Positions 15,259 through 39,299 of a stretch of DNA of 54,975 nucleotides are shown piece after piece. The notes below the pieces were generated by a model. That model was given only the letters and a program-made list of their open reading frames with translations. It was not told the DNA's origin and did not search any database. Source of the DNA: Limisphaerales bacterium (GTDB lineage: Bacteria; Verrucomicrobiota; Verrucomicrobiia; Limisphaerales; JAYPEY01). The DNA lies in assembly GCA_047618185.1 (NCBI GenBank), contig JBLHKZ010000003.1, positions 1 to 54,975 on the forward strand, given 5' to 3'. The position numbers were made by a program, and so were the translations under genes. How positions within the stretch are numbered: the stretch's first letter is position 1; each line of letters opens with the position of its first letter.

Positions 15259-15304
15259 TCAGCCAGACTTTCGCGCGTTGGCGCCACCCCAATTTAATTC
15301 AACC

Positions 15305-17671
15305 ATGAGCAAGACACTCGGCGACAAGGAACTCAACGCCATCGACGCCTATTGGCGCGCCGCCAACTACCTGTCCGTTGGCCAGATCTATCTCTTCGAC
15401 AATCCCCTGCTCAAAGAGCCGCTGAAACGCGAGCACATCAAGCCGCGCCTGCTGGGGCACTGGGGAACGACACCCGGCCTCAATTTCATCTACGCCCACC
15501 TGAATCGCGTGATCAAGGACCGGGACCTCGACATGATCTACATCATCGGGCCCGGCCACGGCGGACCCGCCATCGTCGCCAACACCTATCTCGAAGGCAG
15601 CTACTCCGAACATTATCCGAATGTCTCGCAGGACACCGGCGGCATGAAGCGCCTGTTTAAGCAGTTCTCTTTTCCGGGGGGAATACCGAGTCACGTGGCG
15701 CCCCAAGTTCCGGGTTCCATCCACGAGGGCGGGGAGCTCGGCTATGCGCTGTCGCACGCCTACGGCGCGGCCTTCGACAATCCCGACCTGATCGTCTCCT
15801 GCGTCGTTGGCGACGGCGAGGCCGAGACCGGCCCGCTCGCGGCGTCATGGCACTCCAACAAATTCCTCAACCCCGCGCGCGACGGCGCCGTATTGCCGAT
15901 CCTGCACCTGAACGGCTACAAGATCGCCAATCCGACCTTGCTCGCCCGCATCAGTCATAAGGAGCTCGAAAGCCTGTTTGTCGGCTACGGCTACAAACCC
16001 TATTTCGTCGAAGGCTCCGACCCGGGCGACATGCACGGCAAGATGGCCGAAACGCTCGACACGGTTCTCGGGGAAATCAAGGCCATCCAGGACGCCGCCC
16101 GAAACGACGGCGCGACGAAGCGCCCACTCTGGCCGATGATCGTGCTCCGTTCGCCCAAGGGCTGGACCGGGCCAAAGGAGGTCGACGGCAAAAAGACCGA
16201 GGATTTCTGGCGCTCGCACCAGGTTCCTTTCTCCGACACGGCGAGCAATCCCGAACACGTCAGCCTGCTCGAATCGTGGATGAAGAGCTACCAGCCCGAG
16301 GAATTGTTCGACGAGGAGGGAAAGCTGATTCCCGAACTCGCGGCGCTGGCTCCGACCGGCGCGCGGCGAATGGGATCGAATCCCCACGCCAACGGCGGAA
16401 CCCTCCTGCGCAGCCTGCGCATGCCGGACTTTCGAGACTACGCCGTCGATGTCGTCCATCCTGGCGAATCGGAGGGGGAGTCGACCCGTGTCATGGGCGT
16501 CTTCCTGCGCGACGTCATGAAGTTGAATCTCGAACGAAAGAACTTTCGCGTCTTTGGCCCGGATGAAACCGCTTCAAACCGCCTCGGCGCGATCTTCGAA
16601 GTGACGGATCGCACCTGGCTGGATGAGCAGATTCCCGAGGACGATCATCTCGCGGCCGATGGCAGGGTCATGGAGATCCTCAGCGAGCACACCTGCCAGG
16701 GCTGGCTGGAAGGCTACCTGCTGACTGGCCGCCATGGGCTCTTCTCCTGCTACGAGGCATTCATTCACATCATCGATTCCATGTTCAACCAGCACGCCAA
16801 GTGGCTAAAGGTGACGCGCAAGGAAATCCCCTGGCGGCGGCCCATCGCCTCGCTCAATTACCTGCTCACCTCGCATGTCTGGCGGCAGGATCACAACGGG
16901 TTCAGCCATCAGGACCCCGGATTCATCGATCACGTCGTCAATAAGAAGGCGGACGTCGTGCGCTGCTATTTCCCCCCGGATGCCAATACGCTGCTCTCCG
17001 TGACCGATCACTGCCTGCGCAGCCGCGATTATGTGAATGTCATCGTCGCCGGCAAACAAATGGCGCCGCAGTGGCTGGACATGGACGCGGCTATCAAGCA
17101 CTGCACGGCCGGCATTGGCATGTGGGAATGGGCGAGCAACGACAAAGGCTCCGAGCCGGATGTTGTGATGGGCTGCTGTGGCGATGTGCCCACGCTCGAA
17201 ACGCTCGCGGCGATCGATCTTCTGCGCGAGCTGGTTCCCGACCTGAAGATTCGAGTCGTCAACGTGGTCGATCTGATGACGCTTCAAAGTCATGAAGAGC
17301 ATCCCCACGGTCTGCGGGACAAGGAATTCGACGTGCTGTTCACCACCGACAAGCCGATCATCTTCGCCTACCACGGCTATCCCTGGCTGATTCATCGACT
17401 GACCTATCGGCGGACGAATCATCGGAACCTGCACGTTCGCGGCTACAAGGAAGAAGGCACGACTTCAACGCCCTTTGACATGGTTGTGCGCAACGATTTG
17501 GACCGCTTTCATCTCGTGAGCGACGTCATCGATCGCGTTCCGCGACTCGGCAGCGTCGCGGCCTATGCAAAACAGGCCATGCGCGACAAGCTGATCGAGC
17601 ACAAGGAGTACATCACCCGCCACGGGGAGGACATGCCGGAGATTCGCGACTGGAAATGGCCGCACAAATAG
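15305..17671 (+). CDS. xfp: Xylulose-5-P/fructose-6-P phosphoketolase
   Basis: Motifs [34 protein letters not shown] and [12 protein letters not shown]. Confidence 0.97.
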
Positions 17672-17689
17672 GCGCAAATCGCGCCGGAC

Positions 17690-18874
17690 ATGAAGAGCAT
17701 CCTTGCCATCAACAGCGGCTCCTCGTCGCTGAAGTTCGCGCTGTTTCGCGCCGACTCGTCGGGCCTTTCGCCCATCGCGCGTGGAGCAGTCGAACGCATC
17801 GGGCAGCCCGCCGGTTTTCTGCGCATCGAGGACGCCGACGGCCAATCTCTTCTGCGCCTGGACTCTGAATATCCCGAGACCGTCACGGCCGTTCGCGCAA
17901 CAATGGAAGGCCTGGGGCGGCTGGAGCTGCCCGCGCCCGAGGTCGTCGGACACCGCATCGTCCATGGCGGTCCGAATCACTTAAGGCCCGAACGCGTCAC
18001 GCCTGAACTCCTTGAAGATCTGCGAGGGCTGACGCCGTTTGCCCCGCTTCATACGCCCAGTGCGGTCGCCGCCATCGAGGCCGTCCGCGTCCGCTATCCA
18101 ACGGCGCCGCAGATCGCCTGCTTTGACACCGGCTTCTTCGCGGACATGCCGGACGTCGCCAAACGGCTCCCGCTTCCGCGCGAGTTTCGGGACACGGGTG
18201 TCCGCCGCTACGGATTTCACGGGCTTTCCTACGAATCGATCGTCGAGCAACTCGGCGACGAAGTCTTGCCTCGAACGATCATCGCCCACCTCGGCAACGG
18301 CGTCAGCATGGCCGCGCTGCGCGACGGTCGCCCCGTGGACACGACGATGGGTTTCACACCCAACGGCGGCTGCGTCATGGGCACCCGCACCGGCGACATC
18401 GACCCCGGGACATTGCTGTACCTGATGCATGAAAAGGGGATGAACGTCGACGATCTGGATCGCCTGGTGAACAGGGAATCCGGCCTGCTTGGGATTTCAG
18501 GAATAAGCCGCGACATGCAAACACTGCTTGAGAAACAGGCGGATCATCCCGCCGCCGCCGAAGCAGTCGAATCCTTTTGCCACAGCGCCCGCAAGAATAT
18601 CGGCGCGCTGGCCACAACACTGAGCGGATTGGATCTGCTGGTGTTTACCGGCGGCATCGGTGAGCGGTCGCCGGAGATTCGGTTCCGCATTTGTGAGGGA
18701 CTGTCGTTCCTGGGCATTGAGCTGGATACGGAGCGAAATCAATCCGACTCGGCAGTGATTTCAAAGGATGGCGCCGGCTGCGTCGTGCTTGCGATGCAGA
18801 CCGACGAAGATCTCACGATCGCCCGACATACTTCGCGCTTGAGTTCCGGGCTTGAAGGCGACGGATCCGACTAG
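17690..18874 (+). CDS. ackA: Acetate kinase
   Basis: Motifs INSGSSSLK, GHRIVHGG, RRYGFHGLS, HLGNG, MGTRTGDIDPG and FTGGIGE. Confidence 0.95.
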   Translation: MKSILAINSGSSSLKFALFRADSSGLSPIARGAVERIGQPAGFLRIEDADGQSLLRLDSEYPETVTAVRATMEGLGRLELPAPEVVGHRIVHGGPNHLRPERVTPELLEDLRGLTPFAPLHTPSAVAAIEAVRVRYPTAPQIACFDTGFFADMPDVAKRLPLPREFRDTGVRRYGFHGLSYESIVEQLGDEVLPRTIIAHLGNGVSMAALRDGRPVDTTMGFTPNGGCVMGTRTGDIDPGTLLYLMHEKGMNVDDLDRLVNRESGLLGISGISRDMQTLLEKQADHPAAAEAVESFCHSARKNIGALATTLSGLDLLVFTGGIGERSPEIRFRICEGLSFLGIELDTERNQSDSAVISKDGAGCVVLAMQTDEDLTIARHTSRLSSGLEGDGSD

Positions 18875-23630: not shown

Positions 23631-24377
23631 ATGAGAACGTCAGCATTCCGCCGCTTGGCAACATTTCCTTCATTCGGAGCGCCCGCTTTCGTCGCGGCGT
23701 TGGTTTTCGGCTGTTTGACTTCGACTCTGCCCTCCGCTCATGCCGCGGCGCCGCCCGTTCCGGCAGGCGCGAAGGTATTCGATTTCGAGGCCGACAAGGC
23801 CGGTAAAATGCCCGCGGGATTTACCCCCGCAATTACCGGCTCTGGCGGGCCCATGAAATGGATTACCGCCATCGCGCGGGACGCGCCCTCCGGCGAGAAA
23901 ATGCTCACGCAGCTCAGCTCGGAAAAAATCACCAAGCGCTACCTCCAGGCCATCAATACAGATATTTCAGCGACCGACGTGGACATTTCCGTGAAGTTCA
24001 GGACCATCCGCGGCGAGATGTCGGCCACGGGAGGAATCATCTTTCGCCATCAGGACAACAACAACTACTACGTCATTCGGGCCAGTTCGGGTGAGAGCAA
24101 CGTGGTCGCGTTTAAGACCGAGAACGGCAGACGGGTCAACCTCGGCGTCAAGGGCAGCAGCGCAACCTACGGCGTCCATGCCCGGGTCTCCCACCGGCGT
24201 TGGCACACCCTTCGCGTCATTGCCAAAGGAAGTCTCTTCACGGTGTATCTGAACGACAAGAAACTCTTCGACGTTGAGAACGAAACCTTTATAGGTCCGG
24301 GCAGCATCGGCGTCTGGACCAAATCGGACTCCGTCACCGAGTTCGACGACCTCACCGTGGCCGTCTTGAAGAAGTAG
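23631..24377 (+). CDS. Secreted concanavalin-like / DUF1080 (3-keto-disaccharide hydrolase-like) domain protein
   Basis: Signal peptide ending AHA-A, GGIIFRHQD..YYVIRA, WHTLRV and GSIGVWTKSDSVTEFDDL. Confidence 0.7.
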   Translation: MRTSAFRRLATFPSFGAPAFVAALVFGCLTSTLPSAHAAAPPVPAGAKVFDFEADKAGKMPAGFTPAITGSGGPMKWITAIARDAPSGEKMLTQLSSEKITKRYLQAINTDISATDVDISVKFRTIRGEMSATGGIIFRHQDNNNYYVIRASSGESNVVAFKTENGRRVNLGVKGSSATYGVHARVSHRRWHTLRVIAKGSLFTVYLNDKKLFDVENETFIGPGSIGVWTKSDSVTEFDDLTVAVLKK

Positions 24378-24479: not shown

Positions 24480-27374
24480 TCACCGCTCAACGATCCGGAA
24501 AAACAGCGATGGCTCGATCCCAATAATCGCGTCGAAGATGTGAACGGCGCCGTCTCCAGACACCGACACTCCAACGTCAGTCCACGGGCCAGCCGCATTC
24601 GGCGACGATTGCAGTTGATAGGTGATGCCTGCGCCCGTGGCAAAACCGAGCGTCAGCTTGCCCAGCGCGGGCGTGAAACCCAACTCCAGCGGAACGGGCG
24701 TCGCCATCCCGGCGCTCGTCAGGAATTCAGACTCATTCAGGATCGTCCAGCCGGCCGCCCAGTTGGCGACGCCAAACGCGCCCACAAAGTTGGCCTGAAC
24801 AAAGAAATCATCGCCCGCCGGGGCGACGCGACTCGGCGCAAATGCCGGGCTGGCCATTGCCGGACGCGGATCCAGCCCGAACACGACGTTGATATCCAGC
24901 CCGCCAAGCATCGGATCGACAATCTGATTGGCCTTGCTCATATCCGTAAAGAACACAAGCGCGTCCGCCGAGGCAATGTCCGTCGCCGTGGATCCGGCGC
25001 CGAAATCGAAGAAGATGTTGCCCGCAATGTCGAGATCGCCCGCCGCCACGCGGGCCGCGGCATTGCTGTCCACACGAACCGCCTGATCGCCAAAGCCGGT
25101 GAAGATCGAGTTGTAGTATTTGCCCCCGGCGTTCTCCCGCATCCGCAGGGCGTCGCCACCCGTGCCCGCGCCCGAGCCAGGCCCGACATACGTCACGTTG
25201 TAAATCGTCGGATTGCTGAAGGGCGTCTTTGTGAAATCATCCACGTCGCCATCGTGCTCGCCTCCGTTGTCCATCGCGTTGTCGCCAATCGTAAACCAAA
25301 ACTGCCCCTTACCGCGCCAGCCCTGGTCGTAGTCGAACGAATCGTCTCCACAGAACGTCACGACCGCATACTTCACACCGACCGTCCCGCCGAAGAACTC
25401 AACGCCATCATCGAGGTTGGCGTAGACTTCGATGAACTCCACCGTCGTCCCTCGGCCCACGCCGCCGAGCGTCAGGCCGTTGATCTCGTTGTTGGAGCCG
25501 ATCGAAACGCCTCCGTGCCGGATCGACACGTAGCGGATCACGCCCGAGTTGTCGTTGTCGTCGCTTCCTCCGAACTGACCACGAGGCTCGCTGGTCGGGA
25601 TTCCCTCGATGTTGTCCATGATCGGACTGCCGGCCGCGGCGGGGCTGTTGAGCGTCGCCGCTCCGAGGACGATCAAGCCTCCCCAACGCCCGCGATCCGT
25701 CGGTCCCAGGTCAAAGGGGTCGCCCATGTCATCGGCCTCCGCCGTGAAGATGATGGGATCGGCGGCTGTGCCTTCGGCAAATATCTTTCCGCCCCGGGCG
25801 ACAACCAATGCCGAGGCGTTCTCATTGCTGCCTGGCTTGCCCTTGATCACCACACCCGGCTCGATCGTCAGCGTTTCGCCCGCCTCCACGAACACGCGCC
25901 CCTCCAGGAGGTAAGTGTTGCCCTTGCGCCACACCGCGTTGCCCTGAATGTCATTGGCCCCGCCGTCAATCACCGTGATTGTCTGACCCTGCGCCAACGC
26001 GTAGTTCGGCTCCGCCGCTCCCGCCTCGCTGATCAGGTCCGTCGCCCCCATGATCGTCCAGGCCGACGCCCAGTTGACCGTCCCGTCAAAGGCGCCCTTG
26101 AAGCTCACGTCGTTGAAGAACCCATCGCCCGGCTCGTCCAGTCCGGCCATTAGCGCCGGGCTGCCGCCCTGCAGTCGGGGATCGAATGCATCCGCCGCGT
26201 CGAAGATCCGCCCGATGCCCATCAACATCGGATCGCTGATCGCATTGCCTTTGGCCATGTCCGTGAAGAACACCTGCGCGTCGGTCGACGCGATATCCGC
26301 CGCGGTCGATCCGGCGCCGAAATCGAAGAAGAGGCTCTGCTGGATGTCCAGGTCGCCGGCGGTGACCCGCGCCCCGGCGTTGCTGTCGACTCGAACCGCC
26401 TGATCGCCAAAGCCGGTGAAAATCGAGTTGTAGTATTTGCCCGCGGCGTTCTCCCGCATCCGCAGAGCGTCTCCGCCCGTCCCGGCTCCCGAGCCGGGAC
26501 CGATGTAGGTCACGTTGTAAATCAGCGGATTGCTCAACGGCAGTTTCGTGAAGTCGTCCACATCGCCGTCATGTTCGCCGCCGTTGTCCATCGCGTTATC
26601 GCCAATCGTCAGCCAGAACTGGCCCTTTCCACGCCAGCCCTGATCGTAGTCAAAGCTGTCGTCTCCGCAGTAGCTCACCACAGCGTGCTTCACGCCGACC
26701 GTCCCGCCGAAGAACTCAACGCCATCATCCAGGTTGGCGTAGACTTCAACGAACTCCACGGTCGTCCCTCGGCCCACGCCGCCGAGCGTCAGGCCGTTGA
26801 TCTCGTTGTTGGAGCCGATCGAAACGCCTCCGTGCCGGATCGACACGTAGCGGATCACGCCCGAGTTGTCGTTGTCGTCGCTTCCTCCGAACTGACCACG
26901 AGGCTCGCTGGTCGGGATTCCCTCGATGTTGTCCATGATCGGACTGCCGGCCGCGGCGGGGCTGTTGAGCGTCGCCGCTCCGAGGACGATCAAGCCTCCC
27001 CAACGCCCGCGATCCGTCGGTCCCAGGTCAAAGGGGTCGCCCATGTCATCGGCCTCCGCCGTGAAGATGATGGGATCGGCGGCTGTGCCTTCGGCAAATA
27101 TCTTTCCGCCCCGGGCGACAACCAATGCCGAGGCGTTCTCATTGCTGCCTGGCTTGCCCTTGATCACCACACCCGGCTCGATCGTCAGCGTTTCGCCCGC
27201 TTCCACGAACACGCGCCCCTCGAGTAGATAGACATTGTCGGAGGTCCAGGTCGTATTGCCGACGATGTCATTGACGCCGCCGTCGGAGACGGCAATGTCC
27301 GCGGCCGCCGCGACAGAAACAGTAAGCGACATTGCGAAGAGGCAGGAGATACGTTTGCGGATTTCAGTGATCAT
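24480..27374 (-). CDS. Secreted protein with two tandem ~439-aa Asp/Gly-rich (beta-helix-like) modules and a short C-terminal domain
   Basis: Signal peptide; duplicated module (LTIEPGVVIKG, WGGLIVLG, SGVIRYVSIRHGG, EINGLTLGGVG, DDGVEFFGGTV, GDDSFDYDQG); tail YQLQSS..W...FFRIVER. Confidence 0.85.
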   Translation of the reverse strand: MITEIRKRISCLFAMSLTVSVAAAADIAVSDGGVNDIVGNTTWTSDNVYLLEGRVFVEAGETLTIEPGVVIKGKPGSNENASALVVARGGKIFAEGTAADPIIFTAEADDMGDPFDLGPTDRGRWGGLIVLGAATLNSPAAAGSPIMDNIEGIPTSEPRGQFGGSDDNDNSGVIRYVSIRHGGVSIGSNNEINGLTLGGVGRGTTVEFVEVYANLDDGVEFFGGTVGVKHAVVSYCGDDSFDYDQGWRGKGQFWLTIGDNAMDNGGEHDGDVDDFTKLPLSNPLIYNVTYIGPGSGAGTGGDALRMRENAAGKYYNSIFTGFGDQAVRVDSNAGARVTAGDLDIQQSLFFDFGAGSTAADIASTDAQVFFTDMAKGNAISDPMLMGIGRIFDAADAFDPRLQGGSPALMAGLDEPGDGFFNDVSFKGAFDGTVNWASAWTIMGATDLISEAGAAEPNYALAQGQTITVIDGGANDIQGNAVWRKGNTYLLEGRVFVEAGETLTIEPGVVIKGKPGSNENASALVVARGGKIFAEGTAADPIIFTAEADDMGDPFDLGPTDRGRWGGLIVLGAATLNSPAAAGSPIMDNIEGIPTSEPRGQFGGSDDNDNSGVIRYVSIRHGGVSIGSNNEINGLTLGGVGRGTTVEFIEVYANLDDGVEFFGGTVGVKYAVVTFCGDDSFDYDQGWRGKGQFWFTIGDNAMDNGGEHDGDVDDFTKTPFSNPTIYNVTYVGPGSGAGTGGDALRMRENAGGKYYNSIFTGFGDQAVRVDSNAAARVAAGDLDIAGNIFFDFGAGSTATDIASADALVFFTDMSKANQIVDPMLGGLDINVVFGLDPRPAMASPAFAPSRVAPAGDDFFVQANFVGAFGVANWAAGWTILNESEFLTSAGMATPVPLELGFTPALGKLTLGFATGAGITYQLQSSPNAAGPWTDVGVSVSGDGAVHIFDAIIGIEPSLFFRIVER
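25444..27200. repeat. Intragenic direct repeat: 25444-25883 is identical to 26761-27200 (440 bp, offset 1317 bp)
   Basis: Line-by-line comparison found no mismatch in this block. Flanking parts of the two modules carry many synonymous differences. Confidence 0.92.
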
Positions 27375-27425: not shown

Positions 27426-27469
27426 GAAGGTTACACCAGAGCGTCGGGCTTGTTACGCTTTGGTGAACT
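27426..27469 (-). promoter_or_regulatory. Pho-box-like 11-bp register repeats upstream of the tandem-module gene
   Basis: Minus strand: agTTCACcaaa gcGTAACaagc (one degenerate unit) gtGTAACcttc. Confidence 0.45.
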
Positions 27470-27550: not shown

Positions 27551-30499
27551 TCAAAAATCGTAGCTAAAGGCAATGCCGATCGAGCGGCCCTTCCGGTAGG
27601 ACGACACCGTGCCGACGCCGCTTCCGTCGGGTTGGTCCTGGGTTCGCTCCACCGACGGATCGAGGAGGTTCTTGGCTGAGAGCTTCACGGTCCACTTTTC
27701 GGTGAGCCTCTGGGACAGTCGAAAATCCAACGACGCAAACGAGGCTTCGAAAACGCTCGGCGCGATGCGGGAGGTCTTTTCGAGGCGCTCACCGTAGATG
27801 TTGAAGAAGACACTCGCGGTCGTGCCCAGATCCGGGTGGCGATAGGTAAGATCGAGATTGATGATGTACGGCGACTGTCCCTGCAGCGGACGCGTGTTGA
27901 TGCCACGCGCGTGCTTGTCGAACTCGAACCTCGTCGTGTCCACCTCCGAGCGAATGTAGGAGAAATTCGCGCCAAAGTTGAAGTTGCTGAGCGACGAATC
28001 GATGAAATCCAAATCCTTGCGCAACTCCGCCTCGAAACCGAACACCGTGGCTTTCTCACGATTGTTGTAGGTCACTTCGTGATTCGCCGAAATCTCCTCC
28101 TTCTCAATCGGCATCTTCAATGTCTTGTAGAAAAAGCCCCCGGCCAACACCTCGCCCGGACGGGGAAACCACTCCCAGCGAATGTCGTAATTCTGAATCG
28201 AAGTCTGCTCGAGCGCCGAGTTGCCCTGCAGAATATCGCCGCCAATAAAGTCAAAGGTTGGAACCGGGGAAATTTCGCGAAAGGTTGGCCGCGCCAGCGT
28301 CTGTCCGTAGGCGACGCGGAGATTCACGTTGGTCCGCATCGCATACACGAAACTCGCGCCCGGCAGGATATCCAGATTGCTCTTCGAGGTGGACCCCTGG
28401 GCGCCCGGGGAGGAAACCGCGGCGCCGTTGGCGTCCAACGACAGGGTTGACGCCTCGGCCCGAACGCCGCCGATGAAGTTCAGCCTCTCGGTCAACGCGA
28501 GGTCGAACATGCCATATCCCGCATCCACGGTCAGCTCGCCCGTGTAGTTGTTGAACGGCTCTTCGAAGGCGTAGACGTTGTAGCGAAACCCGCCGAATCG
28601 ATTGGGAGGCGGCTGCGGCTCAAATGCCGAATCGATGATGAACAGATCCGGGTCGCCAAGATGCGCAAAATCGTTGTTGGACCCGTAGGTGAAGCGACGC
28701 TCTTTGTAGTCCCGCTTCGACAACGATCGGTTCACCCCGAATTTCAACTCGCTGTCGAGTCCGTTCCACTGCTCGAACGGAATGCTTTGATCGATTTTCA
28801 GATTCAGATTGTTCTCGTTTAGCTCGCGAAAGAATCGTGTCGGCGCGGTGTAGGACGACAGATCGATGCTGGCGGCGCCGGTGACCGGGTTGCGGTCCAG
28901 GGCGAAGAAACGCCGGTCCGGCTCGTTCTGGCTCGTCGTCGCGTAGGAAACGCTCCAATCCGTCTGGGCCTCATATTTCCATGGCAGCTCATGTTTGCCC
29001 GCCAGTTGAAAGGACTGAATCTCCCGCTCGATGAAAGCCAGCGCGTAATTCTCGAACACCCGGCCCGCGACATTGTCGAGTGAGCCGAGTTGGGTGACGG
29101 CGGTGTCTTCGCTGTTCCGATTATAGAGAAAATTAAAGGTGATCTCGTGCCGATCGTAGAACTTCAGTCCGAGATTGACCAACGAACCCCAAGACACTTC
29201 CTCCGTCGATTTTGCCTCAACCACATCGAGATCCGCCTGCAGCGTTCCGGCGTTGTTCCTGAATTGCCGCCGGAAGCCGTCGTCGTAATTTTTGAAATCG
29301 CGGTCATACGAAACGCCCGCGAGATAACCGAAAGTGACGTTCTCCGTGAGATTCGTGCTGTCCCCGATGGAGACGCTGAAATTGTGGTTTGCCGGCGCCC
29401 TTCGTCGATCGGGCGTCAGCTTCGGAAAAAAGGCCTGACCCAGCGCGGCCAACTCCTCGCCCGCCGCCATCGCCGCCGCGCCCCGACCCGTCGCCTGATC
29501 CAGAAGCGGCCGCTCTCCCGTGTTCGGATTCGGGAGAATAACGTAATTCGGGCCCGCCCACTCATCTGGAATCGACCGTGTCCCATCGTCGAAACCCGCC
29601 CAGTCCCATTTGCCGTCGCCCGGCGTCGTGAGAAAGTCGTCCGTGCCCGTCGTCTGCGTGTTGTAGGACAGGCCGACGCTCGCATTGGAAAAGAACTCCT
29701 CGGGAAAACTCTTCGTCTTGATGTTCACCGAGCCGCCGCTGAAACTGCCCGGCTGATCCGGAGTAAAGGTCTTGCTGATCACGATCGAATCAATCGCCGA
29801 AGCCGGGAAAATATCCATCTGCACCGACTTGCGATCCGGGTCGGGGCTCGGCACGCCGCTGCCGTTTAGCATCGTGTTGCTGTAACGATCGCCCAATCCG
29901 CGAATGACCACATACTTGCCGCCAACCACCGAAGCGCCGGTGACTTTCGACATCGCCTCCGCCGCATTCGCCGCGCCCGCCCGTGAGATGAACTCCGAGC
30001 CGATCGCGTCAGTCACCGCGGACGCGTCCTGACGATCGGCAAGCAGCGCCGTGATCTGGTTTTCGGCGGGTGGATCGGAAATGACCTCGAATGGCTCAAG
30101 CTCCTGAACCACCGGCGACAGCGCGGCGTCCGCCTTCGTCACTTGTCCGACCGCCACGCGGATATCAACAATCGTCATGCGCTCAAACCCCGGCTTTGAA
30201 ACAAAGATCGCGTGAACGCCCGCGGGAATATTCTGAATCTGAAAACTTCCCTGGGCATCGCTTGTCCCGCCCAGCGTCGTTCCCCGCACGCTGACGACCG
30301 CGCCGGGAATCGACCCGCCACGCCCGAACGAATTCGACACCCGGCCCGCGATCGCGCCGCCCTCCGACGACTGCGCCAACGCCGCGCCGGGCAGGAGCGC
30401 CGCCAGGACGAGGGTCAACCAGCGCCGTAATAACGACAAAGGCGACCGGCAACGGGCATGGCTCGCCCGATCGGAATGACATTCCCGCTGTGGTGACAT
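27551..30499 (-). CDS. TonB-dependent receptor with N-terminal carboxypeptidase-regulatory-like domain
   Basis: Plug motifs VVIRGLGDRYS, MDIFPAS and FSGGSVNIKTK; barrel motifs ARPTFREI and NLLD; C-terminal aromatic residue (FSYDF). Confidence 0.95.
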   Translation of the reverse strand: MSPQRECHSDRASHARCRSPLSLLRRWLTLVLAALLPGAALAQSSEGGAIAGRVSNSFGRGGSIPGAVVSVRGTTLGGTSDAQGSFQIQNIPAGVHAIFVSKPGFERMTIVDIRVAVGQVTKADAALSPVVQELEPFEVISDPPAENQITALLADRQDASAVTDAIGSEFISRAGAANAAEAMSKVTGASVVGGKYVVIRGLGDRYSNTMLNGSGVPSPDPDRKSVQMDIFPASAIDSIVISKTFTPDQPGSFSGGSVNIKTKSFPEEFFSNASVGLSYNTQTTGTDDFLTTPGDGKWDWAGFDDGTRSIPDEWAGPNYVILPNPNTGERPLLDQATGRGAAAMAAGEELAALGQAFFPKLTPDRRRAPANHNFSVSIGDSTNLTENVTFGYLAGVSYDRDFKNYDDGFRRQFRNNAGTLQADLDVVEAKSTEEVSWGSLVNLGLKFYDRHEITFNFLYNRNSEDTAVTQLGSLDNVAGRVFENYALAFIEREIQSFQLAGKHELPWKYEAQTDWSVSYATTSQNEPDRRFFALDRNPVTGAASIDLSSYTAPTRFFRELNENNLNLKIDQSIPFEQWNGLDSELKFGVNRSLSKRDYKERRFTYGSNNDFAHLGDPDLFIIDSAFEPQPPPNRFGGFRYNVYAFEEPFNNYTGELTVDAGYGMFDLALTERLNFIGGVRAEASTLSLDANGAAVSSPGAQGSTSKSNLDILPGASFVYAMRTNVNLRVAYGQTLARPTFREISPVPTFDFIGGDILQGNSALEQTSIQNYDIRWEWFPRPGEVLAGGFFYKTLKMPIEKEEISANHEVTYNNREKATVFGFEAELRKDLDFIDSSLSNFNFGANFSYIRSEVDTTRFEFDKHARGINTRPLQGQSPYIINLDLTYRHPDLGTTASVFFNIYGERLEKTSRIAPSVFEASFASLDFRLSQRLTEKWTVKLSAKNLLDPSVERTQDQPDGSGVGTVSSYRKGRSIGIAFSYDF

Positions 30500-30539: not shown

Positions 30540-32135
30540 TCAGGACCGCTTTCGCGCCGCCCGTTGAACCGCCTCCAAATAGCGTTGGATGTTGTCGCGA
30601 TACCGGACTTTCTGAGCCTGTGTCAGCAAATCGACAGCTCTGTCGTATTTCCGCGCGCGCACCTGCAATTGCGCGCGTTTGACCAGTCCGGCCGCTTCAA
30701 ATCCCTCAATCTGCGAAGCCAGATCGTAACGATGATCCGCCCTGGCCACCCGGACGGCCGCCTGCTCGTCGGTTTCCTCCTCCGGCGGCGCCGCGTAGTA
30801 ATCGCCGACCATCAACAGCGCCTCGGCATCCAACGGATTCTTTCCAATGATCTTCTCCAGAACTTCGATCGCCCGATCGCCCTCGCCGCTGGCCAACGCG
30901 GCTTTGGACTCCAGCTTCAGCAGTGTCATCTCCTCGGCCTCCTTGAGTTTCTCGCCGTGAAGGTCGCGGATCCTGCCGAAGATCGCGCGCGCCTCGTCCC
31001 AGGCCCCGCTGGCCGCCAGAATGCCCGCCGCGCGCAGCGAGCGGCGCACATCGTTCACACCGTCCTTTTCGATCGCCTCCAGGTAAACCGACAACGCCAG
31101 CATTGGAGATTCCTGGCTCATGTAGATGTCGCCGAGCAGCATAAGATTCGCGAGGCTGGCCTTTCCGAGCTTGCGGAGAATCTCGTAGTTGATGGCCGCT
31201 CGCTTCGGTTTTTCCATCTGCATGAAAAGACTCGCCTGAATGTCCCAAAGCCTCGCGTCGGTCGGATCGGCCTTGATCAGCGTTTCGAGAAAGGAGTCCG
31301 CGGAGCTCAGTTTGCCCTGCTCGATCTGGCAGGTGAGCAATCCCATTCTCCAATCGCGCTGACCCGGCATCAACATCATTGCGTTGCGATAGGCGCCCTC
31401 CGCTCCGATGTAGTTCTCGTGCTTCAAATGGCACACGCCAAGGATGCCGTAGACGTGGCCATCACCGCCGCCGAGCTCGATGGTCCGGGTCAATTCCGGA
31501 ATCGCCTCCTCAAACCGCTCCATGCCCACAAGCGAAATGCCGAGGTTCTTGTGCGCGCGAAGGAAATTGGGAAACTTGTCGATCGCGCTTCGATACGCGG
31601 GAACCGCCTTCTCGTGTTCGCTCTTTTGAAAATACAGGTTGCCCAGATAGTAATCGAAAATGGCGTTGTCGTTGGTCGTGACGTTCTCAGTGAGCAGCTT
31701 GATGGCGGCGTCCGTGTCGCGGGTCATCAGCGGAAACAACATTTCATTGTGGAACGACAGTTCATTGGTTCCGCCAATGAAGTTGGTGTTGGAGGCCGTT
31801 GGTTTTGGAGGCTCGATGTCCGTGCGATATCCGAAACTGCCGGCAAAGCTTTTCACAAAGTTGCGATCGGACCAGAATGCGGCCAGGGGGTTGTCCGAGG
31901 AAGGAGGATTGGAGAGTTTGAGGTTCCGCGGGATCGCTGCGCGACCCGTGGGAAGTCGAATCGGCGCCGGCTCGACCACGACGGCGGCGGCGGCAGCCTC
32001 AGTCGCCGAATCCGCTCCGCGCTCCTTGAGTTTGAAAAGTTGAGCCGCGCCTGTCGTCGGCATGGCGAGCGCCAACGCCAGCCAGCCATACCATGCCAAG
32101 GCGCGAATTCGAGAGACGTGAAATAGAGGCTTCAT
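30540..32135 (-). CDS. Periplasmic tetratricopeptide-repeat protein (TtpD-like)
   Basis: Signal peptide and multiple TPRs (YYLGNLYF...AHKNLG). Follows tonB in the operon. Confidence 0.85.
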   Translation of the reverse strand: MKPLFHVSRIRALAWYGWLALALAMPTTGAAQLFKLKERGADSATEAAAAAVVVEPAPIRLPTGRAAIPRNLKLSNPPSSDNPLAAFWSDRNFVKSFAGSFGYRTDIEPPKPTASNTNFIGGTNELSFHNEMLFPLMTRDTDAAIKLLTENVTTNDNAIFDYYLGNLYFQKSEHEKAVPAYRSAIDKFPNFLRAHKNLGISLVGMERFEEAIPELTRTIELGGGDGHVYGILGVCHLKHENYIGAEGAYRNAMMLMPGQRDWRMGLLTCQIEQGKLSSADSFLETLIKADPTDARLWDIQASLFMQMEKPKRAAINYEILRKLGKASLANLMLLGDIYMSQESPMLALSVYLEAIEKDGVNDVRRSLRAAGILAASGAWDEARAIFGRIRDLHGEKLKEAEEMTLLKLESKAALASGEGDRAIEVLEKIIGKNPLDAEALLMVGDYYAAPPEEETDEQAAVRVARADHRYDLASQIEGFEAAGLVKRAQLQVRARKYDRAVDLLTQAQKVRYRDNIQRYLEAVQRAARKRS

Positions 32136-32149: not shown

Positions 32150-32815
32150 TCAGGAATTGACGTTGAATTGGATTTGCTGCCGAACGTAGACACTGACAGC
32201 CCCGCCTTCGCGTTGACCGGGTTTAAACTTCCACCGACGCACGGCATCCAGGGCGGGCTTCTCAAACTCAGGCCGACTAGAATTCTCCACCCGCGCTTCC
32301 TCGACCCGGCCCTGGTCGTTCACGACGAACAACAGGACGACCGAACCCGAAACCTTCTGTTTGAGCAGGCTTGGGGGATGTTTGGGCCGGACCGGACCGA
32401 CGAGCATGGGTTTGCTGTCCAAATCGGAAAGTTCGAAAACCTCCGCCTGATCCATCTGGGCGGCCGCGCCCACAAAACTCGCGAGACGATCATTCAAGGC
32501 GCCTCCAGTTCCCATGCCAATGTCGAGACTCGGAATCTCAAACGACATGTCGTTCGCCGCGAGGTCGAGTTCCGGCACGGGTTCCGGCTCCGGCTCCGGC
32601 TCGGGTTCGGGCTCTTCCTCCTCGACCACCGGAGGCGGGGGCGGGGGCTCAAGGGTCGCCGTCTCAAGGCCTGTCAGGACCTTGTCGACGCGACCGGCCG
32701 ACAGCATCTGGGTGAGCGGCAGCACGAGAAACACCGAGGCCGTCAGGAGGATCGCGCCGAACACCGCGCGCATCCAGCCGCCGCCAATCTCGGGTGGGGT
32801 AAATACTTTTCTCAT
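32150..32815 (-). CDS. tonB: Energy transducer TonB
   Basis: N-terminal TM, a Pro/Glu linker (EPEPEP) and TonB_C (FEKPALDAVRRWKFKPG). Confidence 0.93.
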   Translation of the reverse strand: MRKVFTPPEIGGGWMRAVFGAILLTASVFLVLPLTQMLSAGRVDKVLTGLETATLEPPPPPPVVEEEEPEPEPEPEPEPVPELDLAANDMSFEIPSLDIGMGTGGALNDRLASFVGAAAQMDQAEVFELSDLDSKPMLVGPVRPKHPPSLLKQKVSGSVVLLFVVNDQGRVEEARVENSSRPEFEKPALDAVRRWKFKPGQREGGAVSVYVRQQIQFNVNS

Positions 32816-32838: not shown

Positions 32839-33246
32839 TCAGCCGTCCTTGTCCGTTGCCAGACTCACGTTTTCGGCGCCGCCCATGCGGGCCTCGTCCA
32901 CGACCGACATCACCACCCCGGCGTGGGCGCCTTTAAGCGCCTTGACGATCACCGGCGATTCCTCGCGCACCGCCTTGTCGCGCACCAGAGCCCGCACGCC
33001 CGCGACCCCGACTTCCTTGCCGTCAAGGATCACCTGCCCCCTGGCGTCCACTTCGAAAATCAGACTTTCGCTCTCCGACATGGAGACGCTGGCGCTCTGC
33101 GGCCGATCCACCCCCACGCCGCTTTCCTCAACGAAAACCGTGGTGACGATGAAAAAGATCAGGAGGATAAAAACCATGTCGATCAACGGGGAAATGTTGA
33201 TCTCCTCGATCTCATCGGAATCCTGAATGGAACGTCGGCCTCTCAT
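32839..33246 (-). CDS. exbD: Biopolymer transporter ExbD (copy 2)
   Basis: EINISPLIDMVFILLIFFIVTT with the conserved TM Asp. Confidence 0.93.
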   Translation of the reverse strand: MRGRRSIQDSDEIEEINISPLIDMVFILLIFFIVTTVFVEESGVGVDRPQSASVSMSESESLIFEVDARGQVILDGKEVGVAGVRALVRDKAVREESPVIVKALKGAHAGVVMSVVDEARMGGAENVSLATDKDG

Positions 33247-33252: not shown

Positions 33253-33657
33253 TCAGCCCTTGTCCGTGGCGATGTCGATCCGCAGCGCGCCGCCCAGTTG
33301 CGCGGCGTCCAGCGCCTTCGCGACCGTCTCCGCCAACGCAGCGGCGTCGACCTGGAGAATGACCGGCATGGGATCCTGTCGGGTAAGTCTCTTCACCAGG
33401 GGACGGATCCCGCCGACGCCAATATTGGAGCCGCCGTAGATGACCTGATCGTCGCCGGTGATCGCGATGAGAATGCTGTTCTTGTCGAGCTGCTCGCCGG
33501 ACGCCGCCCGCGGGCGGCTCACATCGACGCCCGGCTCCTCGACAAACACCGTGGTGACGATGAAGAAGATCAGGAGGATAAACACCATATCGATCAGCGG
33601 GGAGATGTTGATCTCCTCCAGCTTGTCGGATTCGGTGATGGATCGACGGCTTTTCAT
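33253..33657 (-). CDS. exbD: Biopolymer transporter ExbD (copy 1)
   Basis: EINISPLIDMVFILLIFFIVTT. Confidence 0.93.
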   Translation of the reverse strand: MKSRRSITESDKLEEINISPLIDMVFILLIFFIVTTVFVEEPGVDVSRPRAASGEQLDKNSILIAITGDDQVIYGGSNIGVGGIRPLVKRLTRQDPMPVILQVDAAALAETVAKALDAAQLGGALRIDIATDKG

Positions 33658-33669: not shown

Positions 33670-34368
33670 TCAGGCGGGAACGGGCGCTCCGAGGTAGTCG
33701 TCCTCGTTGACGGCCTCAAACACCGGCTCGGCGTTGGAGGAACTCATGGACTCGGGAGAAACCGGCGGTCGACCGCCATTTCCGCCGTCAAAGGTCAACA
33801 GCGTAAAACTTTCGAGCTTGGCGAGAAAGGCCTCGTACTCGTCGCGTCGAGCCTTGACGAGAGAGGCAAGCGCGTAGCCGGGAAGCGCGACCAGCAGCCC
33901 CATTTCCGTGGTGATCAGCGCCTCGGAGATGCCCGAGGCGATCAGATCGGCGGTTTTGGCTCCGCCGATGGAAATGCCGTCGAACGTGGCGATCATGCCC
34001 AACACCGTGCCGAGCAGGCCGAGCAACGGCGCGGCGGCGACCATGACGTTCATAAACACCAGACGGCGGTCAATTTCAGGAAGCTTGGCGGAGACGACCT
34101 CGGAAAAGCGGTCCTGCACCTCATCCCTCGTGCGGGCGTCGTCCTGGGTGTAGCGAATGATCTCTCCGACCTCGCCGCGACCCGAGTCGGGTTCCAACAC
34201 CCACTGCTCCCAATCCTTCTGCGGCGTCCGCTTGAACTCGCGTTTGGAAAAATAGACCAGCAATTGCAGCGCGGTCCCATAAATGAAAAAGGCCATGACG
34301 AGCAACGGGATCATCAGCCAGCCACCGGCCAGCCACAAATGAGTCAATTTCGCGATTTCGTCGATCAT
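33670..34368 (-). CDS. exbB: MotA/TolQ/ExbB proton-channel protein
   Basis: APLLGLLGTVLGMI and GISEALITTEMGL. Start placed at ATG 34368 (MIDEIAK). Confidence 0.9.
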   Translation of the reverse strand: MIDEIAKLTHLWLAGGWLMIPLLVMAFFIYGTALQLLVYFSKREFKRTPQKDWEQWVLEPDSGRGEVGEIIRYTQDDARTRDEVQDRFSEVVSAKLPEIDRRLVFMNVMVAAAPLLGLLGTVLGMIATFDGISIGGAKTADLIASGISEALITTEMGLLVALPGYALASLVKARRDEYEAFLAKLESFTLLTFDGGNGGRPPVSPESMSSSNAEPVFEAVNEDDYLGAPVPA

Positions 34369-34417
34369 GTCGTTTCCTGTTTGGTTGTGGTTTCGGAGAA
34401 AGGCTCCCGGGTTCGGG

Positions 34418-35932
34418 TCAGGCGGCCACGGGCGCCGCGTTCGTGAGCTCCTCGGTTTCTTCAACGGTCTCAGATTTTTCGGGGACAGGGCTCGGCGCCG
34501 GCTTGCCGCCTTCGGCCCTCGGCGGTTCGCCGCCGTCATCGCCGCCTTCGTCAGGAACGCCATTGATGAAGGCGACGGAAGCCTGCTCCATGCTGCCCAG
34601 CACGCCCTTGGCCTTCCGCGAGATGAAGGCATGAATCAGCAACGCCGGGATGGCGACAATCAGGCCAAACTCCGTGGTGACCAACGCCTCGGAAATGCCG
34701 GATGACAGCATCTTCGGATCCCCCGTGCCGAACACGCTGATCAGACGGAAAGTGTTGATCATGCCGGTGACCGTGCCGAGCAGACCAAGCAGCGGCGCGG
34801 TGGCGGCGGCCAACGCCACGAAGGGCATCCACCGCTCAAGTTGAGGCTTGGCAATGAGCATCTTCTCGTAAAGCGCCTCCTCAATGTACTCCTTCTTTTC
34901 GCCGGCGTGCTGGACCGCCGCCTGCATGAGTTCACCGACCGGACCCTTGATCGTCTGTGCGTGGGCCATGGCGCCCTCCTCGTTGCCGGCCTTCACCCGA
35001 TCGAGAATGATCTGCAGGTCGCGCGGCTTCGCCAGGCGGACGCCCGCGATTTGAATCCACTTCATCAGGCCGATGACGACGGCGAGAATGCCCATGACGA
35101 GAATGGGAACCACCACCGGACCGCCCTTGGAAACGTGCTCCACAAAACTTTCCTTCGTTGCCGCGATCTTGTCGGCGTTGCCCCCGGAAGGATCGAATGG
35201 AACCGCGCCGGCGCCGCCGCTGACGAGCGCCTTGAGTTCGGCCTGAAAAGCTTCTGCCGCGGGAATGACCGACGGCTCTGTTGTGTTCAACTGCAGCCGG
35301 GTCAACCCGATCGCTCCGCTCTCGCTGGAGGCGAAGGCGGCCAACGGTCCGACCAGCGCGTAGGTTCCGTTCTCCAGCTTGCCGGACTCGGTGAGCGCCT
35401 TGCCCTCGAACGACTCGCCGCCCAGCACGGCGTCGATGCGATCCAGCGCCGTGTCCAGCATGCCGAGGCGTTTTTCAAGACGCTCGAACACGCCCCGATC
35501 CGCGTTGCCCGAGTCGGCGCGCGCGGCGGCGATGCCATCCTTGTAACGCGCGACCTCCGCGATATGCGTCCGTGATTCGAAGGCGTTCAGGTATTCGTTC
35601 AAGGCGCCGCTTACGAAGGAGATTTCAGCGCCGCGAGCCTTCACTTCGGATTTCAGCACATTCAAATCCACGATCTTGTTTTCCAGATCGCGGGTGGTCT
35701 TCTCGACCTCCCGACGCCGGGCGAGCGTCGCTTCCTCCGCCTTGGCCCATTTCTCCGCCAATGGGATTTTCTCCTCCGAAATGCGCATTTGCGCCGCCGC
35801 CAGATCCGACAGCGCCGCGTTCAGATCCTTTTTAGCGGAACCTGAAACGGCCGAGAAATCCTGCGCCGTCGCCGTGGCGGCGAATCCAACCAGTAGAAGC
35901 CCGGAAATGAATTTGAAAAATCGGTGTAGCAT
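34418..35932 (-). CDS. TtpC-like large ExbB homolog (periplasmic coiled-coil N-terminus plus ExbB domain)
   Basis: Signal peptide, coiled coil, PFDPSGG, then APLLGLLGTVTGMI..GDPKMLSSGISEALVTT. Confidence 0.85.
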   Translation of the reverse strand: MLHRFFKFISGLLLVGFAATATAQDFSAVSGSAKKDLNAALSDLAAAQMRISEEKIPLAEKWAKAEEATLARRREVEKTTRDLENKIVDLNVLKSEVKARGAEISFVSGALNEYLNAFESRTHIAEVARYKDGIAAARADSGNADRGVFERLEKRLGMLDTALDRIDAVLGGESFEGKALTESGKLENGTYALVGPLAAFASSESGAIGLTRLQLNTTEPSVIPAAEAFQAELKALVSGGAGAVPFDPSGGNADKIAATKESFVEHVSKGGPVVVPILVMGILAVVIGLMKWIQIAGVRLAKPRDLQIILDRVKAGNEEGAMAHAQTIKGPVGELMQAAVQHAGEKKEYIEEALYEKMLIAKPQLERWMPFVALAAATAPLLGLLGTVTGMINTFRLISVFGTGDPKMLSSGISEALVTTEFGLIVAIPALLIHAFISRKAKGVLGSMEQASVAFINGVPDEGGDDGGEPPRAEGGKPAPSPVPEKSETVEETEELTNAAPVAA

Positions 35933-36745: not shown

Positions 36746-36789
36746 ATCAATTACGACAGCGTGACGAGGAAGTTACGATTCCGTGACAG
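36746..36789 (-). promoter_or_regulatory. Four-unit Pho-box-like direct repeat array oriented toward the TonB operon
   Basis: Minus strand: CTGTCACGGAA TCGTAACTTCC TCGTCACGCTG TCGTAATTGAT. The 11-bp period with a GT(C/A)A(C/T) core resembles the PhoB consensus CTGTCAT-N4. Confidence 0.75.
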
Positions 36790-36848
36790 GCATGGCTGAT
36801 CCAATGAAATAGTTGGAAGAAGGAGGCCGCTTGATTCTCTTAGCTCAC

Positions 36849-37653: not shown

Positions 37654-37687
37654 GGAAATCCGCAATTTCAGCTGAACTCTCTCGCCT

Positions 37688-37709
37688 TTGTCACACAACT
37701 GTAACATTG
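37688..37709 (+). promoter_or_regulatory. Pho box upstream of the phosphate porin
   Basis: TTGTCACACAA CTGTAACATTG, a near-consensus two-unit box. Confidence 0.8.
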
Positions 37710-37777
37710 GCGCCATCTTCTCGTTGCTCCGGCAATTCACCTTATCACCAAGCAAATCGAAACGAGAAACCGAACCG

Positions 37778-39181: not shown

Positions 39182-39196
39182 ATGCGGGTCGGAGCA

Positions 39197-39218
39197 TTGT
39201 CACAGATCCATCACCTGC
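39197..39218 (+). promoter_or_regulatory. Pho box upstream of pstS
   Basis: TTGTCACAGAT CCATCACCTGC. Confidence 0.65.
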
Positions 39219-39299
39219 CCGGCGCCTGTTCGTGACTTTGGCGTTGGATAATCCGCGGAGCCTAACGGCATCACATCGAATCCATCGCTCAAACACAAT

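Follow-up and report, generated by a model that had tools for sequence, protein, structure and literature searches.

The beta-helix gene and its receptor

The DNA analysed here, called the window, comprises the 54,975 nucleotides (nt) from position 1 to 54,975 of contig JBLHKZ010000003.1 in the genome of a Limisphaerales bacterium (Verrucomicrobiota; assembly GCA_047618185.1). An open reading frame (ORF) on its minus strand, 24480-27374, starts with ATG and encodes a protein of 964 amino acids (aa) with four parts: a signal peptide, two tandem modules of 439 aa and a 70-aa C-terminal tail. This beta-helix gene, so called for the predicted fold of its modules, is the last of nine co-oriented minus-strand genes. 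The gene ahead of it on the same strand encodes a TonB-dependent receptor, and a spacer of 176 nt separates the two; an initial annotation, made from the sequence and its list of ORFs, had likewise placed the gene directly after the receptor. The nine-gene operon and a set of genes for the uptake of inorganic phosphate (Pi) diverge from one 170-nt region (Table 1).

Protein architecture and module duplication

The N-terminus, MITEIRKRISCLFAMSLTVSVAAAAD, was read by eye as a basic n-region, a hydrophobic core and the residues AAA ahead of a conserved mature start, and the alignment of homologues agrees; the full-length AlphaFold2 (AF2) model has a low-confidence helix at residues 3-15. These features suggest a Sec-type signal peptide and hence a secreted protein, as had been proposed. 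No lipobox of the form L-(A/S)-(G/A)-C was found ahead of the mature start, either here or in the verrucomicrobial homologues; the lipobox LSAC is present in a Sphingomonas member of the family.

The two modules described in the initial annotation are repeated with a period of 1317 nt (439 aa). When the halves of the protein were compared by BLASTP, 352 of 431 residues were identical (82%), and the copies are about 80% identical in DNA over most of their length, with one tract of 440 nt that is the same in both at every position. Both modules are acidic (62 Asp and Glu versus 24 Lys and Arg in module 1, 55 versus 25 in module 2), and each of the three acidic motifs quoted earlier was located once per module: DDGVEFFGG at aa 216-224 and 655-663, GDDSFDYDQG at aa 237-246 and 676-685, and DNGGEHDGD at aa 263-271 and 702-710.

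An assembly artefact was considered as the source of the duplication and was ruled out with an independent DNA run (X6). In that run a contig (25875-26693) spans the module junction, and the 440-nt unitig matching the identical tract has a depth of 12.5, about double the 6-9 of its flanks. Because of the bridging contig and the nearly twofold depth, the duplication and the identical tract were taken as real features of the population.

A quick maximum-likelihood tree was built from 55 modules of 26 proteins, split with a hidden Markov model (HMM) of the module. In 20 of the 21 multi-module proteins the modules of one protein formed a clade to themselves, with support. Those of the window protein were mutual nearest rows, within a supported four-row clade that also holds both modules of the closest relative (locus L011; 74% identity, likewise two modules), and in four related Melioribacteraceae with two modules each the modules pair by species. 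The pairing by species, together with the identical tract, points to recombination that keeps neighbouring modules alike, rather than to many independent duplications.

The conserved character of the acidic motifs was borne out. In 30 two-module relatives the residues D216/D217/E220, D238/D242 and E267 do not vary in either module, and the corresponding positions are likewise unchanging in 43 single-module rows. Thirteen polar residues are invariant in all (E151, R180, E191, E210, D216, D217, E220, D238, D242, Q252, E267, N287 and N316), nine of them acidic and one an Arg. Since every one is retained in both modules, including the equivalents in module 2, both modules are probably functional.

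Predicted fold

The AF2 model of module 1, made from a 43-sequence alignment, consists of stacked short strands with a pLDDT of 94.4 and a pTM of 0.94. When the model was compared with 48,161 representative chains by VIA-align, the 50 chains listed had Z scores of 22.5 to 16.8 and were read as right-handed parallel beta-helix proteins, among them AlgE4, tailspikes, NosD and Pel9A, and also the adhesins PfbA and pertactin. The alginate epimerase/lyase 8ja4 scored 22.5, AlgE4 22.3, Pel9A 21.3 and polygalacturonases about 19. The prediction and the fold search thus confirm, at the level of a model, that each module is a right-handed parallel beta-helix, in line with the beta-helix-like modules of the initial annotation.

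The likeness to known proteins is one of fold. AlgE4 (2pyg), Pel9A (1ru4), 8ja4 and the CBA120 tailspike TSP2 superpose on the module with Z of 21-22.5 and a root-mean-square deviation of 2.7-3.7 over 258-300 residues, but with only 10-17% identity. The list of matches is flat, and no characterised family stands out in it. Foldseek with the same model gave no chain at E 0.001 or better, PDB searches with the sequence and with the family profile (A1) matched no solved chain up to E 10, and no match to the characterised beta-helix lyases and glycosidases (PL1, PL3, PL6, PL9, GH28) was obtained by sequence or profile in Pfam, NCBIfam or PDB. There is no solved structure for any member of the family described below.

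In the full-length AF2 model the two beta-helices are again confident, the linker at residues 460-462 has a pLDDT below 50, and the overall pTM is 0.56, so that the placement of the modules relative to each other is undefined in this model. Residues 893-964 are also below pLDDT 50.

Family membership

The initial annotation had listed the protein as one of unknown function; it does belong to a family already described. The protein's own cluster (P0389) carries the precomputed label PF28492.1, the same label is found on all 120 homologues among the matches listed, and in the ESM Atlas 30 of 30 matches are PF28492, Beta_helix_4 (Pfam 38.1), with a top score of 0.98. Membership rests on these precomputed labels; the local Pfam copy did not contain the PF28492 model, and neither it nor the local NCBIfam copy gave a match for the protein. 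The family is large: it takes in 8087 matching representative clusters (50% identity), of which 3004 reach E 1e-30 or better, and of 8000 scored candidates 7994 match at E 0.001 or better. HMMER found one to eight matched stretches per protein in the best 150 representatives, and by the module HMM each of the 26 proteins in the tree has between one and four full modules.

The connection to the phosphate-starvation protein ElpS was made through proteobacterial homologues. A tblastn search with the module found Sphingomonas and Indioceanicola proteins whose genes stand in the order lipoprotein, TonB receptor, gspN/D/E/F. Profile A1 aligned to the Sphingomonas protein (hhalign, 99.9% probability, E 3e-35) with the acidic motifs in register. 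Because this protein stands in the elpS layout, matches profile A1 and also carries the PF28492 label, the link to ElpS is judged indirect but strong. When the Sphingomonas protein was itself used as the query, the named rows among the 120 listed were all Sphingomonas except one (Facivitalis), and none was Caulobacter; many of the rows are unnamed. By these labels and alignments the window protein belongs to Pfam PF28492 and, in all likelihood, to the ElpS/FII/BT4056 family, and is not an orphan.

Published relatives

ElpS (CC0170) of Caulobacter crescentus is reported to be a surface lipoprotein made only under phosphate starvation, encoded beside the TonB receptor CC0171 and released with the aid of a neighbouring type II secretion system (T2SS); the same layout is reported for a sphingomonad too (PMC2996285). 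Like the protein studied here, ElpS has no recognised functional domain and adjoins a TonB receptor; it is a surface or extracellular protein made under phosphate starvation, as the window protein is predicted to be. It differs as a single-module lipoprotein of about 50 kDa, freed by a T2SS-dependent protease (PMC2996285), whereas the window protein has two modules, a predicted Sec signal without a lipobox and a C-terminal tail. Whereas ElpS has gspC-N neighbours, Pfam-type family scans of 41 window ORFs brought up no T2SS family; in the window, moreover, the receptor comes first, in an operon with its own TonB2-type motor. These comparisons with ElpS and CC0171 are by description.

In Flavobacterium johnsoniae, Fjoh_0545 and Fjoh_0546 (FII) lie within the phoBR operon with OprP, and under Pi depletion they showed log2 fold changes of 8.0 and 9.9, while being repressed under N and Fe limitation (PMC8115612). 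The proteins FI-FIII are given as 31-36% identical to ElpS and were modelled on a polygalacturonase by Lidbury et al. (PMC8115612). The locus of FII and Fjoh_0545 ('Pus4') shares with the window the order of receptor and then beta-helix protein, the OprP and Pho genes alongside and an assigned pectin-lyase fold (PMC8115612; 10.64898/2026.09.03.749221), and Fjoh_0545 has the same set of receptor Pfam domains (Plug, CarbopepD_reg_2, OMP_b-brl_3) as the window receptor (PMC8115612). Again compared by description, FII is a one-module lipoprotein with phoBR in its cluster, unlike the protein and locus in the window (PMC8115612). As of September 2026, FII-type loci were still described as hard to interpret and their function as hard to predict (10.64898/2026.09.03.749221).

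The third relative, BT4056 of Bacteroides thetaiotaomicron, is stated to be homologous to ElpS and Fjoh_0546 and has been proposed as a lid of the receptor BT4055; homologues of the two are neighbours in 621 genera (10.1101/2023.03.17.533168). The likeness lies in a proposed surface partner, not of the SusD type, on the outer face of the receptor, and the difference in that BT4056 is a lipoprotein; few AlphaFold-Multimer contacts with BT4055 are reported (10.1101/2023.03.17.533168). A looser parallel is offered by SusCD and the Pho-regulated PusCD, in which, as would be the case here, a surface protein captures a ligand for a TonB-dependent barrel (PMC8115612; 10.64898/2026.09.03.749221). Their surface protein is, however, the helical SusD rather than a beta-helix, and the Beta_helix_4 pair is spread far beyond the Bacteroidota. 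The receptor in the window is not of the SusC type (TIGR04056, 19 bits versus a cut-off of 368).

The family is thus known to respond to phosphate starvation, and ElpS, FII and BT4056 are without a known substrate. A literature search on the family, under PF28492 and Beta_helix_4, and on the locus tags yielded no paper in which a substrate is assigned.

Operon, phosphate genes and promoter repeats

The receptor scored 218 bits on TIGR01782, under the cut-off of that model. The genes ahead of it encode a TonB2-type motor that ends in a tetratricopeptide repeat (TPR) protein at the position of TtpD, which is itself a TPR protein. The order corresponds to that of the six-gene Vibrio tonB2 operon (ttpB2, ttpC2, exbB2, exbD2, tonB2, ttpD2), in which ttpB2 (DUF3450) is first and ttpD2 last, so that the first six positions match (PMC6957404). 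The Vibrio system is described as Fur- and iron-regulated and as serving several receptors (PMC6957404); the window operon, by comparison, has two ExbD genes, runs on into one dedicated receptor pair and carries Pho-box-like repeats in its promoter. The listed ORFs of the long MotA/ExbB-family protein and of ExbB overlap by 215 nt, and the true start of ExbB is probably further downstream than listed.

On the other side of the 170-nt region, the PiT/PHO4 gene is split over two frames, with the GANDVSKGI motif in ORF 36813-37064 and the rest in ORF 36901-37653, as the result of either a frameshift or an assembly error. No phosphatase gene was found among the 41 scanned ORFs of the window. A 3-keto-disaccharide-hydrolase-like gene (23631-24377) is convergent with the beta-helix gene. 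Further off, a phosphoketolase gene is followed by an acetate kinase gene (15278-18874), and a fused sucrose-phosphate synthase/phosphatase-like gene lies at 1690-4029; these belong to ordinary metabolism and are unrelated to the beta-helix gene.

The Pho-like repeats that had been noted ahead of the beta-helix gene are real, and their half-site is common to the other promoters of the locus. The enterobacterial Pho box consists of CTGTCAT, four bases and a second CTGTCAT, and the repeats in the window resemble it. Ahead of the beta-helix gene the elements GTTCAC, CGTAAC, a degenerate site and TGTAAC follow one another at an 11-nt phase, CGTAAC and TGTAAC being 22 nt apart (27430-27456); in the divergent promoter the minus-strand reading gives CTGTCAC, TCGTAAC, TCGTCAC and TCGTAAT at the same phase. 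The window has five pairs of GT(A/C)AC with a spacing of 11 or 22 nt, where shuffled sequence gives 0.5, and every one of the five is in a promoter of this locus. The listed TTG start of the porin gene (37688) overlaps the pair found there, and a Met with a signal-peptide-like stretch lies 30 codons on (37688-37778); with this later Met as the start, the repeat would sit about 75 nt upstream of the real start.

The whole 5.9-Mb genome was then scanned for a stricter six-base pair. At 11 nt it occurs four times, three of them in this locus, and at 22 nt six times, of which only two lie outside long ORFs, both again in this locus. The control spacings of 10, 12, 21, 23 and 33 nt gave 1, 6, 7, 2 and 6 matches, with 0, 0, 2, 1 and 0 outside ORFs. 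One extra strict site, on contig C439, adjoins a fragment read as transposase-like. The repeats also recur in related loci: in two of the three verrucomicrobial relatives with the whole operon (L011 and L069) the stretch from the receptor to the beta-helix gene contains a phased pair, and in L004 and L069 such a pair precedes the DUF3450 gene.

Table 1. Coordinates of the beta-helix gene parts, the surrounding operons and promoter repeats in the window, and of tail-bearing ORFs elsewhere in the same genome (contig names C19 to C343)
Feature	Position	Strand	Evidence
Signal peptide, residues 1-24 (predicted Sec type, no lipobox)	27303-27374	-	N-terminus as read; homologue alignment
Beta_helix_4 module 1, residues 25-463	25986-27302	-	AF2; VIA-align; HMM E 7.5e-201 (own genome)
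Beta_helix_4 module 2, residues 464-894	24693-25985	-	82% identity to module 1; HMM E 6.5e-202 (own genome)
Tail domain, 70 aa, residues 895-964, FFRIVER at end	24483-24692	-	Homologue alignment; tail HMM
440-nt tract in module 1, 100% identical to 25444-25883	26761-27200		DNA comparison
440-nt tract in module 2, 100% identical to 26761-27200	25444-25883		DNA comparison; single unitig in X6
TonB-dependent receptor (N-terminal CarboxypepD_reg, plug, barrel)	27551-30499	-	PF00593, PF14905, PF13620, PF13715, PF07715
TPR protein (TtpD position)	30540-32135	-	TPR families; position as ttpD2
TonB	32150-32815	-	PF03544, E 8.8e-16
ExbD, two genes	32839-33246, 33253-33657	-	PF02472, E 3.4e-27 and 1.3e-23
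ExbB	33670-34632	-	PF01618
Long MotA/ExbB-family protein (TtpC position)	34418-35932	-	PF01618
DUF3450 protein (TtpB position), first gene of operon	35948-36727	-	PF11932, E 9.4e-22
Divergent Pi-uptake genes: PiT/PHO4, OprO/P porin, PstS, PstC, PstA, PstB, PhoU	36813-43935	+	PF01384, PF07396, PF12849, PF00528 (twice), PF00005, PF01895
Pho-box-like phased repeats ahead of beta-helix gene	27426-27469	-	Sequence and pair search
Four phased half-sites, divergent promoter	36750-36789	-	Minus-strand reading, 11-nt phase
Pho-box-like pair ahead of OprO/P porin gene	37688-37705		Pair and position weight matrix search
Pho-box-like pair ahead of pstS	39197-39214		Pair and position weight matrix search
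Tail-bearing ORFs, own genome	C31:10275-19319, C31:2435-10306, C96:7356-13607, C63:15281-18919, C63:18970-22107		Tail HMM
Tail-bearing ORFs, own genome (rest)	C343:2-3028, C98:11745-13913, C19:10844-12163, C204:8453-10363, C70:10234-11199		Tail HMM

Related loci and their phosphate context

Seventy related loci were collected from species-representative genomes, and their neighbouring ORFs were clustered, with one or two representatives of each cluster scanned. The loci span the Verrucomicrobiota, Bacteroidota, Ignavibacteriota, Latescibacterota, Gemmatimonadota, Fibrobacterota, Acidobacteriota and others. The pairing of the gene with a receptor was upheld: 60 of the 70 contain a homologue of the window receptor, for the most part of full length and with 27-70% identity. 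Its ORF is on the same strand as the beta-helix gene in 58 of 59 loci and within 600 nt or overlapping in 54 of 59, standing directly upstream in 28, directly downstream in 22 and overlapping, by crude ORF calls, in four. In three verrucomicrobial loci (L004, L011 and L069) the pair comes with the full TonB2-type motor. On a megaplasmid of Pseudoalteromonas shioyasakiensis (L079, 2804-14252) a TonB2-type motor stands directly upstream of a three-module homologue of 1366 aa and a receptor, all in a row; Pseudoalteromonas makes up 14 of the 23 plasmid-collection records with a match.

Genes of the Pho type were frequent among the neighbours. An OmpR-type regulator was found in 20 loci, a PAS-HisKA kinase in nine, a PstB-like ABC ATPase in 11, PstC/A-like permeases in seven, PhoU in seven, polyphosphate kinase (PPK) in six, a PstS-like protein in five and PHO4-PhoU in three. 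At least one regulator, kinase, Pst, PhoU, PPK or PHO4-type neighbour was present in 31 of the 70 loci, and a Pst, PhoU, PPK or PHO4 gene in 19. Together with the PiT, OprP, PstSCAB and PhoU genes of the window and the published induction by Pi starvation (PMC2996285, PMC8115612), these neighbours sustain the link to phosphorus that had been suggested. Single cases were Ppx-GppA (L007) and Exo_endo_phos with 5'-nucleotidase (L030). In 88 of the 176 further neighbour ORFs, those that were scanned within 2.6 kb of the pairs, no recurrent downstream enzyme or phosphatase was seen. The Indioceanicola and Sphingomonas loci include T2SS genes, and a T2SS-K-like gene stands right beside the single-module homologue in L004, a Limisphaerales locus (11787-13022), which echoes the link of ElpS to type II secretion in Proteobacteria.

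The phosphate context bears on two other explanations of the gene. It could encode a carbohydrate-active enzyme or an adhesin for carbon acquisition or attachment, with the phosphate genes nearby by chance; the pectate-lyase-like fold, the presence of PfbA and pertactin among the fold matches and the convergent 3-keto-disaccharide-hydrolase-like gene would fit. We regard this as very improbable, given a Pho-type context in 31 loci from many phyla, Pho-box-like repeats shared with the pstS and oprP promoters, the lack of a CAZy-type Pfam match and the reported induction of homologues by Pi depletion and not by N or Fe limitation (PMC8115612).

The protein could also act, as has been proposed for ElpS, as an accessory factor for separate secreted phosphatases, which it would activate or scaffold, the receptor being a mere neighbour. 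Overexpression of elpS is reported to raise the alkaline phosphatase activity of the supernatant while ElpS itself is inactive (PMC2996285), as such a factor would. Against this, no phosphatase gene recurs among the neighbours scanned in the 70 loci or occurs among the scanned window ORFs, and the receptor is the one partner conserved across phyla, in 60 of the 70 loci here and in the 621 genera counted elsewhere (10.1101/2023.03.17.533168). The chance that this explanation is right appears small.

Near-identical copies of the locus occur in at least 17 metagenome DNA runs from ice, seawater, marine and estuary samples, with the receptor stretch nearly complete; the organism is a marine or sea-ice verrucomicrobium.

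C-terminal tail and modes of anchoring

The members of the family differ in how they appear to be held at the cell surface. The proteobacterial members start with a lipobox, and many of the Bacteroidota and other FCB-group (Fibrobacterota-Chlorobiota-Bacteroidota) members among the matches listed end in the sorting domain PF18962 of the type IX secretion system (T9SS). In the verrucomicrobial members the signal peptide is plain and the C-terminus is formed by a tail peculiar to them. In the window protein PF18962 is not present, and the 70-aa tail, which is conserved in the verrucomicrobial homologues, stands in the alignment at the place of the T9SS C-terminal domain of the FCB-group homologues.

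The tail has no Pfam or NCBIfam match, and a search of the organism's own genome with the single tail sequence found only itself. With a profile of eight verrucomicrobial tails, 10 further ORFs of 322-3015 residues were found in this genome, the match ending 1-43 residues from the end of the ORF (Table 1). By eye, the shared pattern reads G..Y.(V/L)(E/Q).S.DL..W....G.G....(F/Y)YR(V/I/L). A search for the tail among longer proteins gave three Beta_helix_4 proteins only. Because the tail is always C-terminal and stands where relatives have the T9SS domain, it may be a verrucomicrobial sorting or anchoring signal.

Two metagenome-assembled genomes, L024 (G001, labelled Hyphomicrobiales) and L060 (G002, labelled Gammaproteobacteria), have 24 and 8 weaker matches, all in the T9SS C-terminal-domain part of profile A1 (positions 408-537). 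For that reason their taxonomic labels may be wrong, and neither genome served as a centre for further comparison; the Beta_helix_4 proteins of both look like those of the FCB group.

Proposed role

We lean towards the view that the protein is a Pho-regulated cell-surface partner of the adjacent TonB-dependent receptor, which captures and possibly processes a phosphorus-containing substrate. This is suggested by the dedicated motor and receptor, the predicted export of the partner, the presence of Pi transporters as the only inner-membrane systems nearby and the control of relatives by Pi starvation. Under Pi limitation, judging from motif and context, a PhoB-type regulator would bind the phased repeats and turn on the TonB2-type operon (DUF3450, TtpC-like, ExbB, two ExbD, TonB, TPR, receptor) and, through an extra internal promoter, the beta-helix gene as well. 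The protein would be exported by Sec with no lipid anchor, and the verrucomicrobial tail would help to bring it to the surface or keep it there, a task that falls to a lipid anchor or T9SS domain in its relatives. There the invariant acidic site of each module, most likely loaded with divalent cations, would capture a polyanionic phosphorus-containing ligand. The ligand or a fragment of it would be passed to the receptor for TonB-energised import, and phosphate would then be taken up by the neighbouring PstSCAB and PiT systems. A cation-bridged grip on a polyanion is the most plausible arrangement because a site made up of Asp and Glu, but for one Arg, one Gln and two Asn, would repel phosphate if divalent cations were missing. 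Such binding is known from Ca-dependent pectate lyases and beta-propeller phytases.

Several points weigh against the role of a surface partner. Beta-helices are typically found in polysaccharide-active enzymes and adhesins, and the invariant charged site would suit catalysis equally well. The window protein lacks the lipid anchor that the characterised members have, and homology to ElpS was reached only indirectly, by way of proteobacterial homologues. In 39 of the 70 loci no Pho-type neighbour was found in the available DNA, which is often ended by contig ends. The half-site was picked by eye from the very regions that were scored, and a genome scan with a position weight matrix gave five new intergenic sites whose flanking genes have no phosphorus function; of the ten flanking ORFs one is DUF7133 with cytochrome c, one a weak BPL_LplA_LipB and eight are without a family. 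For these two reasons we infer a Pho box here, on good grounds, rather than assert one. The RNA evidence consists of a few short metatranscriptome contigs (Logan), of which five map to the receptor gene and one to the beta-helix gene (26683-26999); they come without starts, strand or level and do not prove transcription. As reported for ElpS, the purified or immunoprecipitated protein was without p-nitrophenyl phosphate (pNPP) or alkaline phosphatase activity, deletion of elpS left phosphatase activity unchanged, and cc0171 was constitutive (PMC2996285).

The chief competitor is an enzymatic role, in which the modules would be an extracellular lyase, hydrolase or esterase that does more than capture an anionic phosphorus-bearing polymer and cuts it into fragments for import by the receptor; phosphorylated glycans, teichoic-acid-like polymers, extracellular nucleic acid and polyphosphate are examples of such a polymer. 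This role is kept alive by the degree of invariance and by the nearest folds: thirteen polar residues invariant across phyla and in both modules suit an active site better than a binding surface, and the closest structures are lyases, epimerases, glycosidases and depolymerising tailspikes (Z 22.5 for 8ja4, 22.3 for AlgE4, 21.3 for Pel9A). PPK or Ppx genes near some of the loci, and the modelling of FI-FIII on a polygalacturonase (PMC8115612), are in keeping with it. However, no sequence match to a characterised enzyme family or solved structure was obtained, even with the profile up to E 10, the structural match list is flat with no enzyme family standing out, and no downstream enzyme recurs among the further neighbour ORFs scanned; ElpS, moreover, was reported as inactive in the pNPP assay (PMC2996285). 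We consider an enzyme of this kind possible but rather unlikely, and prefer the capturing surface partner.

A bolder version of the enzymatic role can be put forward as a speculation with a low chance of being right. The acidic site would be the active centre of an undescribed cation-dependent enzyme that works at the cell surface and depolymerises a phosphodiester-linked or polyphosphorylated environmental polymer (polyphosphate, teichoic-acid-like polymers or phosphoglycans, for example); the oligomers released would enter through the receptor, and in the Verrucomicrobiota an unnamed C-terminal sorting domain, shared with other large exoproteins, would hold the enzyme in place. If this were true, a very widespread pair would represent a new route of bacterial phosphorus acquisition.

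Significance

The copy in the window adds little that is new to a family that is known and functionally unsolved. It extends the family to a verrucomicrobial variant, with a predicted Sec signal and a C-terminal tail instead of a lipid or T9SS anchor, and is marked further by the doubled, partly homogenised module; it also shows once more that a dedicated TonB2-type motor can form part of a Pho island. The wider interest lies in the pair itself. Few outer-membrane uptake modules that lack a known substrate are as widespread as Beta_helix_4 and its TonB receptor, and in two model bacteria this pair is among the loci most strongly induced by phosphate starvation. Once its ligand is identified, the phosphorus cycle of sea and soil would gain a further step.

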